The notes beneath the pieces are model-generated. The model saw nothing but the letters and a program-made list of their open reading frames with translations, was not told the DNA's origin and made no database searches. DNA of 17,950 nt, from IMG/VR virus record IMGVR_UViG_2663763326_000011; one strand, written 5' to 3'. Source of the DNA: a virus (Duplodnaviria; Heunggongvirae; Uroviricota; Caudoviricetes). Below, one piece after another: positions 9,172 through 15,496 of the stretch. Within the stretch, counting starts at the first letter, position 1. Each line of letters begins with the position of its first letter. The position numbers and the translations under genes were made by a program.

Positions 9172-9282
9172 GTTGGTTCAGTTGGTTCAGTTGGTTCAAT
9201 TTGCAAAGAGTATTGTTTTGTAAGGATTTTATTCTTTTTATTGAACCAACACTGAACCAACAACACGGTATTTTGAACCAAC
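9172..9282. repeat. Iteron cluster 1: GTTGGTTCA x3 tandem, 43-bp AT-rich spacer, TGAACCAAC x3; ori-like
   Basis: Exact 9-mers GTTGGTTCA at 9172-9180, 9181-9189, 9190-9198; AT-rich spacer 9199-9241; reverse-complement 9-mers TGAACCAAC at 9242-9250, 9253-9261, 9274-9282. Immediately 3' of the helicase gene. Confidence 0.75.
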
Positions 9283-9378
9283 ACAATGTGACTGAATTGA
9301 TGAGCACAACATCTGGCTGGCATTAGAGAGTGTTTTACGAAATCTGAACACCACATCACTGGTTTCAGTGGGAGATTG

Positions 9379-9837
9379 ATGATGAAGATAATCGCAAAGG
9401 CTTTTCATCATGTATTTGGCAAAGTATCCGATTTGCCATCTGTAATACCGATGAACAACAGAAGGGAGATGCTGCTTGATGTGGTTGTGTTCCCATACAT
9501 AGACCTTTCTGAACCAATGAAAGCAACTCTTTTCAGAAAGTATCTTGGCGACTTTAAACGCCGTTTTACAGGCGTTAACGGGATGGTTGATATCTGCTCC
9601 ATCAGAGATATTGTTGAACTTGCAGGGATTAATTTGTGGGGAGAAGCGGCAGCAGCATACAAATGGCTTGAACGCCTGCACTGTGTTTCATTCAGTGACA
9701 TGAGTGCTGATATCGCTTTAATGGTTCCTCACAAAATCAATATGGTCTTTGCTGGTGGCAATTACACTTATCCATGGAACCAGGAACAAAGAGAGAACAG
9801 GAAAGCTCACGCCATGAAGAGTAATGCGACTCCATAA
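9379..9837 (+). CDS. Hypothetical protein (152 aa)
   Basis: ATG at 9379 with GGGAG 5 nt upstream; the ORF-track coordinate 9376 is a TTG. Followed by a strong terminator at 9890-9922. No recognisable motif. Confidence 0.6.
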   Translation: MMKIIAKAFHHVFGKVSDLPSVIPMNNRREMLLDVVVFPYIDLSEPMKATLFRKYLGDFKRRFTGVNGMVDICSIRDIVELAGINLWGEAAAAYKWLERLHCVSFSDMSADIALMVPHKINMVFAGGNYTYPWNQEQRENRKAHAMKSNATP

Positions 9838-9889
9838 ATATAGTTTTTAGAGTCCATAAAAAAACTGTCAAAACCTGACATACAGAACG

Positions 9890-9922
9890 ATGCCACCAGC
9901 TACTGAACGGTGGCATTTTTTT
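9890..9922 (+). terminator. Rho-independent terminator
   Basis: Perfect 8-bp stem ATGCCACC (9890-9897) / GGTGGCAT (9909-9916), 11-nt loop, then a T7 run to 9922. Confidence 0.6.
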
Positions 9923-10017
9923 GTGCTATTTGTTTCATATTTTGCAATCACAATGATGAATGTTGCGTTTTATGAAACTATAATGACTGTTGTTTTATAC
10001 AGTTCTAAGGGGGCGTT

Positions 10018-10191
10018 ATGGCTATTTCAGTAAAGCCAGTATTGATAAGTGAGAAGCAAATGGAAGCGATAAAGAAAATTCAGGAGGAGCAGCGTAAAAA
10101 ATCAGAGGTAGGAGTTGCGCCAACGATCCACGAAATTGCTCGGGGATTAATGGATAAGGCGCTGGCTTACACTTTAACTGGACGTGGGTAA
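10018..10191 (+). CDS. Small ribbon-helix-helix-like putative DNA-binding protein (57 aa); below the ORF-track cutoff
   Basis: ATG at 10018 preceded by AAGGGGG; translation MAISVKPVLISEKQMEAIKKIQEEQRKKSEVGVAPTIHEIARGLMDKALAYTLTGRG fits a beta-strand/helix/helix pattern. Stop 10189-10191 is 4 nt before the next ATG. Confidence 0.5.
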   Translation: MAISVKPVLISEKQMEAIKKIQEEQRKKSEVGVAPTIHEIARGLMDKALAYTLTGRG

Positions 10192-10195
10192 ATTT

Positions 10196-13670: not shown

Positions 13671-14086
13671 TTCTTTGAAATAGAGTCATTGATCTTTTCG
13701 AAACACCAATGAAATCCACAAAAGAGAGCTACACCAATATAACAATACAAAACTATCAACCACCTTTCAGTGTCCGAAGGGTAAAAAACATCAATTACAT
13801 AAGCAACACCAATTGGTATTAATGCTAGTAATAACATCGACACAGGACGTACAAACTTCTGAACTATATCAATTTTATAGAACCACAAGGCGGTATGTTT
13901 AATGATATAAGTAAAGATGGCTGCGCCAATAATGGCAAAAAACACCATCGATAAAGTCGGGTATAACTTTGCGACAATTAAACCCAACAAAATAATTATA
14001 ACTGCCTGCCCCCTCACACCAACCCTCCCTTTAGCTTTGTTTAGAATGGCAATCATCATATATCCAAGACATGGCATTTGGTACAT
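13661..14086 (-). CDS. Predicted multi-pass inner-membrane protein (3-4 TM helices); start uncertain
   Basis: Hydrophobic segments QAVIIILLGLIVAKL, MVFFAIIGAAIFTYII, MLLLALIPIGVAYVIDVF, WLIVLYCYIGVALFCGF. The ORF-track start at 14257 is a GTG inside a GC-rich repeat/palindrome region; internal ATGs at 14086, 14077, 14059 are more plausible, none with a strong SD. Confidence 0.5.
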   Translation of the reverse strand: MYQMPCLGYMMIAILNKAKGRVGVRGQAVIIILLGLIVAKLYPTLSMVFFAIIGAAIFTYIIKHTALWFYKIDIVQKFVRPVSMLLLALIPIGVAYVIDVFYPSDTERWLIVLYCYIGVALFCGFHWCFEKINDSISKNKD

Positions 14087-14129
14087 AGCTTGGGTCAGGA
14101 TTTCAAATCCGATCCCGTTGATGGGGTCG

Positions 14130-14560
14130 TTACAGTACGCGCATATCCGCTTTATGTGAAACAGGAAGATTTTTCTGATATCACTGCCACAGCAAAACAC
14201 CAATTTCGTGACCAGTACGCGCGCGAGGGGTATCAGTTGCAAAAATTTTGCAACCACGTCCGACCAGTACGCACACGATGGCGGGGGATACCATGAAACT
14301 GTTCTCTACACGAGACAGAGTGGTGGTGATGTGTTGATTATCGGCGTATGTGCGCACAGGACGCGCTATGACGATGTTTTATGCGGGTACACCATCACAT
14401 GTATCTGGTGTGATCAATCGCGTTACATGACATCTCATGTTGTGCTGGTGATTATCACGACGTTCTGAATCTGGCCTTTGCCTGATATTTTGCGACAAGT
14501 ACGCGCGCGTAGCATCGACAGCATACACATTGGATATTCATTTTGTGACCAATGCGATAA
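14130..14560. repeat. GC-rich repeat region: about 16-nt motif GAC(C/A)AGTACGC(G/A)C(G/A)CG x3 plus related copies, and a 19-bp palindrome
   Basis: GACCAGTACGCGCGCG 14210-14225; GACCAGTACGCACACG 14262-14277; GACAAGTACGCGCGCG 14494-14509; partial copies near 14133-14145 and 14541-14558. Palindrome GTTGCAAAAATTTTGCAAC at 14236-14254. Several alternating purine-pyrimidine tracts. Confidence 0.6.
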
Positions 14561-14738
14561 GTAGCGGGATAAGAATTGATAAAATCAACAGGACGATGAT
14601 CCACTTTTGATTCTCGTCCATCTTATCTGCTAGGCGACGCTCCATTCCGTGCATATCACCGCGAATGGCAATCATCTCATTGCGAACATCCGAGAAGTGG
14701 TTGGCTTGATGTTCAATGTGTGGCGTTCTGCCTTTCAT
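14538..14738 (-). CDS. Small tail-anchored membrane protein (66 aa): charged/helical N-terminal region plus C-terminal TM helix
   Basis: SD-like AGGTGAGGA upstream of the ATG on the minus strand. C-terminal WIIVLLILSILIPLLIALV is a single TM segment. Architecture resembles holin-like/XhlA-like small proteins; family not established. Confidence 0.55.
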   Translation of the reverse strand: MKGRTPHIEHQANHFSDVRNEMIAIRGDMHGMERRLADKMDENQKWIIVLLILSILIPLLIALVTK

Positions 14739-14817
14739 GTCTGATCCTCACCTATCGTCACCACCTGCTGGTGTATAAAGGTATTAGCCCAAGCAGCTTC
14801 CCAATGGGCACTCATGT

Positions 14818-15273
14818 TTATACGCTGACCTTACAATCAATCACCGCTTTTAACTTTTCAGCATTGCTTCCCTGACGCTTCCACGCGCTGTAAATATCTT
14901 TATCCCACGCTTTACCAGCTTTTGTTTGATAGCCTGCTTCATTGATCCGTTCAGCTATCACACGCCCATTATCAAATCCCTGTTGGATGGTATCGGCAAT
15001 GATCTTTATAACTGCCGTTTCGTTATATGGTTTTGGTGGGATGTTCGGCTTTCCGGCAATAAGCGACGCAGCGGCTTTTTCCATGCGCTCCACCAGCCCA
15101 AGCATTCGTGAATCAATAGACTTTTCCGGCTGCCCCAGCTTCATGCGAATCGCATCAACAAGCCAAGAGGTTTTATCTCCTCCAGAAGCGAGAACAGACC
15201 GATTAAACTCATCCTGCAATTCAGATGGGATGCGGAACGCGATCAGATTAGATTTGCTCATTGCAAAGACCAT
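14818..15273 (-). CDS. Putative ribbon-helix-helix-domain DNA-binding protein with ~100-aa C-terminal extension
   Basis: N-terminal SKSNLIAFRIPSELQDEFNRSVLASGGDKTSWLVDAIRMKLG fits the Arc/CopG/MetJ RHH pattern. Alternative start at 15261 (MSKSN...). Transcribed divergently from the 15533 gene, with iteron cluster 2 in between. Confidence 0.55.
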   Translation of the reverse strand: MVFAMSKSNLIAFRIPSELQDEFNRSVLASGGDKTSWLVDAIRMKLGQPEKSIDSRMLGLVERMEKAAASLIAGKPNIPPKPYNETAVIKIIADTIQQGFDNGRVIAERINEAGYQTKAGKAWDKDIYSAWKRQGSNAEKLKAVIDCKVSV

Positions 15274-15375
15274 ATCAGTGAGTAATATCCATACAGTATA
15301 CCACTGTATAACACTGTTATACGCTCAAATATCAGCCAGAAAATAACAGACCAATCACAAATCTATCGCTGTGTT

Positions 15376-15496
15376 GTTGGTTCAGAGCTGGACTGTGTTG
15401 GTTCAAAATGAGTTGATGTTGGTTCAATATTTCTGAAAAAACACAATAAAAACAACGATCTTTACAAATTGAACCAACTGAACCAACTGAACCAAC
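15376..15496. repeat. Iteron cluster 2: GTTGGTTCA x3 at 21-bp spacing, 43-bp AT-rich spacer, TGAACCAAC x3 tandem; inverted copy of cluster 1
   Basis: GTTGGTTCA at 15376-15384, 15397-15405, 15418-15426; spacer 15427-15469; TGAACCAAC at 15470-15478, 15479-15487, 15488-15496. The reverse complement of the spacer matches the cluster-1 spacer at 17 of its first 21 positions. Confidence 0.75.

Follow-up and report, generated by a model that had tools for sequence, protein, structure and literature searches.

A probable split replication origin, organised like P4 ori/crr, in an EcCIMP1-like phage satellite of Escherichia coli

The replication origins of phage-inducible chromosomal islands (PICIs) have so far been described as a single compact block 3' of rep, and the distant cis replication region (crr) of satellite P4 has been seen as a peculiarity of one satellite. 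Here, we analyzed two clusters of 9-bp repeats (iterons), located 6.1 kb apart in a 17,950-bp stretch of viral DNA (IMG/VR record IMGVR_UViG_2663763326_000011, hereafter the window), which by its sequence belongs to the EcCIMP1-like PICI satellites of E. coli and occupies a site between yicC and yicG. These clusters, referred to as unit 1 and unit 2, are probably the two units of one split, bipartite, replicase-bound origin similar to P4 ori/crr. Judged by its sequence and position, unit 1 is a canonical PICI origin located directly 3' of the primase-helicase gene.

In EcCICFT073, the origin lies immediately 3' of rep and consists of two iteron sets flanking an AT-rich region, and a plasmid can replicate from the pri-rep-ori segment (Fillol-Salom et al. 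2018, PMC6092414). On inspection, this origin is a compact double unit with the iteron CTGTCTACC, whose outer tandem pairs are inverted and 89% complementary, with 190 nt between the arms. The window shares with the origins of PICIs and Staphylococcus aureus pathogenicity islands (SaPIs) the location 3' of pri-rep and the opposed short iterons around an AT-rich region (PMC6092414, PMC9371898), and its replicase belongs to the DUF927/SaPI-Rep lineage. However, the described origins form a single compact block of ~230–300 bp, whereas in the window seven genes and 6.1 kb separate unit 2 from unit 1. The literature searched contained no account of a PICI origin in split form.

EcCIMP1 is found in E. 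coli MP1, where the P22-like phage Kapi1 brings about excision and transfer of this PICI (PMC11773190). Its replicase and unit 1 are 98.9% identical to those of the window at the DNA level. The same GTTGGTTCA units are present in EcCIMP1 and likewise split: DNA-transfer genes of the P22 type are found between them, and perC follows directly after unit 2. In contrast to the window island, EcCIMP1 is integrated near yagU, and its inter-unit segment spans 8.4 kb and contains partly different genes. A term search of the paper describing EcCIMP1 (PMC11773190) returned no mention of an origin of replication or of iterons.

In satellite P4, too, one repeat forms two clusters, of which the first adjoins the 3' end of the primase-helicase gene and the second is kilobases away. 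Both of these elements, ori and crr, are reportedly needed in cis and bound by the C-terminal domain of the alpha protein. According to the GenBank annotation, crr (4291–4590) is directly 3' of alpha (4636–6969), and the ori repeats (9310–9413) are found 4.7 kb from crr, between leftward vis and rightward sid. We observed that the plus strand of crr is in register with the minus strand of ori, i.e. the two P4 clusters are mutually inverted. The window and P4 are therefore alike in this orientation, in the position of the distal cluster between divergent genes (4.7 kb away in P4, 6.1 kb in the window) and in the make-up of each cluster, namely tandem repeats, a spacer of 35–43 nt and reversed repeats. 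An initial reading of the window from its sequence alone (the sequence-only reading) had proposed an ori with a second, P4 crr-like element, an option favoured by the comparative evidence below; it had also taken the inverted orientation as a contrast with P4, which does not hold. The differences lie elsewhere: the helicase is of the alpha/DUF5906 type in P4 and of the DUF927 type in the window island; crr comprises two tandem copies of a 120-bp unit and its repeats measure 8 bp, whereas its counterpart in the window is a single unit with 9-bp repeats; the distal element is the one named ori in P4, whereas the proximal unit is the constant one in the window family; and the window island is devoid of sid, delta and psu.

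Auxiliary arrays of iteron plasmids, such as P1 incA, consist of direct repeats in series, have no unwinding spacer and act negatively. Unit 2 resembles such arrays in being a second cluster of putative initiator-binding repeats outside the minimal origin, placed across the rep gene from it or at a distance from that gene, but differs from them by its full origin-like, palindromic plan. An incA-like array of same-orientation repeats lacking an unwinding region was considered and set aside, as the iterons of unit 2 are opposed and enclose an AT-rich spacer.

Exact GTTGGTTCA 9-mers occur 12 times in the window, all inside the two clusters. With up to one mismatch allowed, 17 matches were obtained compared to 4.2 expected, a number reached in 0 of 200 shuffles; the iteron clusters are a real, non-chance feature. 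The elements of the replication region are as follows.

6391–9146, plus strand: primase-helicase (Pri-Rep) gene, with a Zn-ribbon and TOPRIM primase, a DUF927 helicase and a C-terminal segment containing RGYQRKSPR
9172–9282, plus strand: candidate origin unit 1 (proximal), with a contiguous triple (9172–9198), a spacer (9199–9241) and three reversed iterons; GTTGGTTCA on the plus strand at 9172, 9181 and 9190 and on the minus strand at 9242, 9253 and 9274
9313–9322, plus strand: CTGGCTGGCA linker motif, containing CTGGCTGG (9313–9320), ~30 nt after unit 1
15376–15496, minus strand: candidate origin unit 2 (distal, inverted), with three spaced iterons, a spacer (15427–15469) and a reversed contiguous triple (15470–15496); GTTGGTTCA on the plus strand at 15376, 15397 and 15418 and on the minus strand at 15470, 15479 and 15488
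15497–15519, plus strand: conserved right flank of the array (ACCTTTTTGCTTATCTATATAAT), immediately 5' of perC

Both units follow the PICI/SaPI plan of opposed iteron sets (3 + 3) flanking an AT-rich region. Their spacers are 43 nt long and 79% AT (the whole window has 46% GC), and the contiguous triple of each unit has a 9-bp period. The clusters are reverse complements of each other, as indicated by the inverted repeats I1 (55 nt, 93%) and I2 (59 nt, 71%), with a single asymmetry in the spaced iterons, which are 11 and 21 bp apart in unit 1 compared to 21 and 21 bp in unit 2. The sequence-only reading had thus correctly described twelve 9-mers, three plus three per cluster, around 43-bp AT-rich spacers in a reverse-complement arrangement; the similarity of the two spacers was also seen, but their gapless identity amounts to 26/43 (60%) rather than the ~65% given. 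As it had further stated, cluster 1 follows directly on the 3' side of the primase-helicase gene: the distance from the replicase stop codon (9144–9146) to the start of unit 1 is 26 nt, and for this reason unit 1 is regarded as a textbook PICI origin. Unit 2 is found in a 271-bp intergenic region between a leftward gene for a 147-aa protein and rightward perC. The divergent promoter region assigned to this site is therefore correct as to the genes but not as to the promoter, since a consensus scan detected no sigma-70 promoter at either cluster. No terminators were detected in a scan of both units, and Rfam and tRNA scans gave no match at either cluster.

A search with the intact replicase yielded 77 loci from many genera of Enterobacterales and beyond, of which 58 were retained because the 3' end of the replicase was present and an iteron word could be defined (EcCICFT073 is not among these 58). 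In each of the 58 loci, an iteron cluster begins +22 to +47 past the replicase stop. According to the position of the second unit, these loci fall into the following classes.

Compact, 31 loci: a single array of 260–350 bp
Intermediate, 2 loci: a linker of ~160 or 430 bp between the units
Split, 11 loci: unit 2 located 1.1, 2.2, 4.8, 5.9, 6.2 (the window island), 6.2, 6.8, 7.2, 8.4, 8.8 and 9.0 kb downstream
Unit 1 only, 9 loci: second unit not found within ~10 kb
Uninformative, 5 loci: contig ends too early

The compact arrays consist, in order, of tandem iterons, an AT spacer, reversed iterons, a linker, forward iterons, a spacer and reversed tandem iterons. This corresponds to cluster 1 of the window followed directly by cluster 2, with a linker of only ~30 bp that often contains CTGGCTGG. 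When joined in silico, units 1 and 2 of the window are collinear and in register with two compact arrays (loci L025 and L037) and one intermediate array (L050), at 59–68% identity over 327–354 alignment columns. The flank ACnTTTTTnCTTATATATA, the counterpart of the right flank in the window, closes compact arrays as well as distal units in other genera, and the orientation of unit 2 relative to unit 1 is constant in 12 of 12 split loci.

Conservation of the distal unit was determined as mean pairwise identity over 12 loci from at least nine genera. The tandem triple (93%) and the spaced iterons (85%) are strongly conserved, in contrast to the DNA between the iterons (47%) and the flanks (37–48%), and the 21-bp phasing is fixed among the 12 distal units. 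This selective conservation of the iterons indicates that the distal unit is no decaying duplicate but an array of binding sites that has been preserved. Moreover, AT-rich spacers (75–88% AT) are present in the distal units of each of the 13 non-compact loci (11 split, 2 intermediate), and in every distal unit located more than 300 bp from its partner. A conserved GC-rich element, AAAACCCAGTGnTGGCGCGGnCTG, takes the place of the second spacer in about half of the compact arrays, which have differing iteron words (L005, L006, L007, L013, L019, L023, L034, L041 and L047; also present at 11940–11975 in L002 and 11180–11215 in L083). The spacer of unit 1 is AT-rich almost throughout the relatives, and we take unit 1 to be the likely constant melting site. 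The CTGGCTGG motif of the linker recurs at +148 to +170 past the stop in 23 of the 58 loci, across six iteron words, compared to a background of 0.12 per 420 nt, and also follows the first unit of L002 (10896–10910 in that locus). Given its two CTG trinucleotides, it could serve as a priming or start signal.

No fewer than eight iteron words are in use among the 58 relatives, and the word is identical in both units of any one array. Comparison with the C-terminal motif of the replicase revealed the following pairings.

RG[YF]QRKSPR: iteron GTTGGTTCA, in all 38 loci (two truncated 8-mer calls included)
RGYQGRV-R: iteron GAGACAACA, in 5 of 5 loci
RGYQRKTPR or KGVTRK[ST]LR: iteron GTCGGTTCA, in 5 of 5 loci
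DR[YL]K[RK]KAL: GGGTTA-type iteron words, in 4 of 4 loci

A single-residue S-to-T change in the motif accompanies the switch from GTTGGTTCA to GTCGGTTCA. This covariation is the pattern expected if the C-terminal domain of the replicase reads the iterons in both units, as would fit SaPI Rep, whose C-terminal winged-helix domain binds iterons (PMC9371898), and it supports such a role for the window replicase. A simple, testable specificity code between the replicase C-terminal motif and the 9-mer is proposed.

Comparison of homologous islands, suggested by the sequence-only reading as a check, revealed that the two units do bracket a variable segment whose content differs between islands. The window and EcCIMP1 are homologous up to 9340, past unit 1 and the linker motif, and again from 15375, the base preceding unit 2. 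The breakpoints of the mosaic coincide with the inner edges of the units. In other E. coli islands, the inter-unit interval contains insertion sequence (IS) elements and genes for abortive infection (Abi) or DUF2824 proteins. Within E. coli, units joined without intervening DNA were found in 0 of 859 matching genomes, and compact GTTGGTTCA arrays were only encountered in other genera; joined units having never been seen in E. coli, the split state is fixed in this species. In a spread sample of E. coli genomes, 27 of 27 unit-1 genomes showed a second match, i.e. unit 2.

Taken together, these comparisons suggest a model in which each unit is a complete PICI/SaPI-type module composed of a tandem triple, an AT-rich unwinding spacer and reversed iterons placed on one helical face by the 21-bp phasing. 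The primase-helicase would bind the 9-mers of both units through its C-terminal segment with RG[YF]QRKSPR and assemble over the AT-rich spacer in the head-to-head manner proposed for SaPI Rep, whereupon the spacer would melt. Unit 1 would be the constant partner and unit 2 a crr-like second site acting in cis, the two presumably cooperating by protein-mediated looping as in P4 ori/crr; it is from the comparisons above that we infer binding, looping and the unit that fires. Since such cooperation would tolerate distance, the linker may have become a slot for variable DNA, from ~30 bp to 9 kb in length. Judged from sequence, the known PICI double-unit origin would then occur here in a split form that resembles P4 ori/crr in its organisation.

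This model would place PICIs and P4 on a continuum in which the distance between the same inverted units ranges from 30 bp through 160 bp, 430 bp and 1 kb to as much as 9 kb, and the occurrence of one two-unit plan in three unrelated replicase/iteron systems may allow the origins of PICIs and P4 to be viewed within one framework. Accordingly, the second unit may be needed in constructs designed as minimal replicons or for satellite engineering, such as PICI 'drones' and P4 cosmids, and the inter-unit linker is flagged as a site where helper-specific genes accumulate. The feature is of moderate interest to researchers working on satellites and replication origins, and is directly testable in EcCIMP1. 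A further, tentative possibility is that the split itself is functional: the linker might be a dedicated slot for helper-specific modules that are recombined between islands at the conserved units, and replicase bridging might loop the module, or fire both units, so as to couple initiation to amplification or expression of helper-exploitation genes. Under this tentative extension, P4 crr would be the second unit of an ancestral PICI-type double origin.

Several observations weigh against a bipartite origin. First, no unit 2 was found within ~10 kb downstream, even with a profile hidden Markov model (HMM), in nine loci, none of them from E. coli (L015, L024, L029, L030, L033, L040, L042, L045 and L053); unit 2 may be dispensable in these nine loci, or may lie further than 10 kb away. 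Second, pri-rep of the window is frameshifted by a 1-nt deletion at 7239, within a G-run (7236–7242), giving a TOPRIM open reading frame (ORF; 6391–7245) and a DUF927 helicase ORF (7281–9146). The counterpart in EcPF7 is a single coding sequence of 919 aa with GGGG compared to GGG in the window, and the gene could be a pseudogene or naturally split into pri and rep, or the frameshift could stem from a sequencing error. The DUF927 domain itself is well recognized (Pfam, 1.7e-47), and the helicase part matches PDB entry 8tch, 'Pathogenicity island protein' (E=5.9e-12). Third, no winged helix was recovered for the C-terminal domain, whose AlphaFold model reached a confidence (pLDDT) of 59 from a 25-sequence alignment, and neither Foldseek against PDB nor a profile search of PDB sequences returned a meaningful match for this domain.

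Fourth, second units exist without a partner. The unit-2 query matched 560 E. coli genomes, compared to 368 with a full unit-1 match, and about one third of the E. coli unit-2 carriers lack unit 1 and have unit 2 next to a non-cognate replicase. One such island, L002, carries an intact orphan GTTGGTTCA unit 2 (17842–17962), and the distal-unit profile HMM identified a second, independent orphan in Serratia oryzae L058, at +6110 to +6224 after the stop. The replicases of L002 and L058 are of other specificity, and each has its own complete iteron pair or array. Unit 1 was not found anywhere in the sampled E. coli orphan genomes. Use of the orphans in trans by a co-resident cognate replicase was considered and is unlikely, as the sampled orphan genomes match either unit at one place only. 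Either the orphans were left behind as relics when replicon modules were recently swapped, or they have a second role, e.g. at adjacent promoters.

L002 illustrates such a swap. It is the same yicC/yicG island, in which a block corresponding to window positions 7397–9767 has been substituted, bringing in an unrelated helicase of the DUF5906 type together with its C-terminal part. Its replicase (8392–10743) is chimeric, the first 344 aa (Zn-ribbon/TOPRIM) being 86% identical to the window up to a break at window position 7396, which indicates that primase and helicase/origin-recognition modules are exchanged separately. The CTGTACCA/CTATACCA iterons of L002 again form two mutually inverted units, 1.1 kb apart.

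These points bear on the alternatives. Unit 2 may be bound by the replicase and yet be regulatory, serving negative copy control by titration or handcuffing (incA-like) or replicase control of the promoters of perC and the gene for the ribbon-helix-helix (RHH)-like 147-aa protein. Its location between divergently oriented genes would fit, as would the fact that 7 of 12 split loci have an RHH-gene homologue whose 5' end abuts unit 2, the conserved TATA-rich flank that follows unit 2, the persistence of orphan copies without a cognate replicase, and the nine loci that seem to manage with unit 1 alone. We nevertheless consider a purely regulatory role rather unlikely: unit 2 retains the full origin plan of opposed iterons and an AT-rich spacer in every split locus, the validated EcCICFT073 origin is itself made of compact double units, and next to unit 2 no consensus promoter was detected and the following gene differs by locus.

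That unit 2 is a functionless relic, i.e. a duplicated or leftover origin copy from inter-island recombination, is suggested by the orphans beside non-cognate replicases in L002 and L058 and by the visibly mosaic islands, but appears quite improbable. The distal architecture and iterons were kept over at least nine genera while the neighbouring DNA fell to the low identities given above, the orientation of unit 2 never varies in the split loci, and the two-unit design recurs in independent replicons (the L002 pair, P4 and EcCICFT073).

The sequence-only reading had also offered the clusters as ends of an acquired or invertible cassette, transposon-like or a 6.1-kb switch, for which a 55-nt, 93% inverted repeat at 6.2 kb distance and variable content in between could speak. 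Neither version was borne out, and there is very little chance that either applies. With both units present and adjacent in 31 loci with nothing inserted, the units are backbone rather than cassette ends, and terminal inverted repeats were rejected on this basis. A synthetic flipped-junction query, run against 5,426 E. coli genomes, had no match at ≥80% coverage in any of the 551 carriers, all loci agree in the orientation of the enclosed genes, and domain and family annotation of the island identified no invertase or transposase besides the tyrosine integrase (1–1269), so that an invertible segment was rejected as well. Finally, that the 9-mers are operators of another island protein (the RHH-like protein, AlpA or PerC), the shared-regulator option of the sequence-only reading, is highly unlikely even though the RHH-like gene abuts unit 2 in the window and in six other split loci, because the iteron word covaries with the replicase C-terminal motif, both units occur in islands without an RHH homologue within 10 kb (e.g. 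the GAGACAACA group), and repeats at 15293–15322 (GTAAGACAG in other genera) are better operator candidates.

The genes around and between the units are listed below.

1–1269: P4-type tyrosine integrase
9341–15374: variable segment between the units, seven genes
9379–9837: 152-aa gene
10018–10191: 57-aa gene
10196–11539: P22 gp20-like ejection protein (Inj_translocase/gp20-like, phrog_917)
11524–13641: 705-aa DNA-transfer-protein homologue (phrog_770)
13661–14056, minus strand: membrane protein gene
14538–14738, minus strand: 66-aa gene
14818–15261, minus strand: 147-aa protein with RHH-like N-terminus
15533–15820, plus strand: PerC-family regulator gene (Pfam PerC, 2.6e-33)

By sequence similarity, the bracketed genes are largely a helper-exploitation module of P22-type ejection-protein homologues and not arbitrary cargo; the variable DNA bracketed by the clusters was thus recognized correctly by the sequence-only reading, but labelled inappropriately. 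By analogy with EcCIMP1 and Kapi1, the ejection-protein homologues fit a P22-like helper, and the putative satellite ejection proteins could act in helper-protein replacement or exclusion. The gene following unit 2 varies among loci; among the compact relatives, several likewise have a perC-type gene following the origin array, as does EcCICFT073, where two short genes intervene.

The 147-aa protein has the RHH-like N-terminus MSKSNLIAFRIPSELQDEFNRSV...WLVDAIRMKLG. Short repeats (ACAGTATAC, CACTGTATAAC and ACTGTTATAC) lie at 15293–15322, between its gene and unit 2, and GTAAGACAG repeats occupy the corresponding interval in other genera; from this arrangement, they are likely the protein's own operators. 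Three GACCAGTACGCGCGCG-like repeats (14203–14229, 14262–14281 and 14487–14513) are present in the gene-poor interval from the membrane-protein gene to the 66-aa gene, and a similar sequence, GACAAGTACGCGCGCG, is found just left of unit 2 in L062.

The left part of the island carries, besides the integrase, an AlpA-like helix-turn-helix (HTH) protein, an AntA antirepressor and an Ash/Icd region. Rfam searches identified isrK (4432–4509, 67.8 bits) inside the long 'Ash' ORF and C4 antisense RNA (4572–4659, 79.9 bits) inside the same ORF, just upstream of the Icd-like gene. Together, these RNAs resemble a P1/P4-style RNA-based immunity module ahead of the replication operon. Lastly, L035 from Yersinia pekkanenii contains three full iteron arrays within 6 kb, at -4555, +27 and +1208 from the replicase stop, and a homologue on the same contig bears the annotation HNH endonuclease domain protein; the locus may consist of tandem or rearranged islands.

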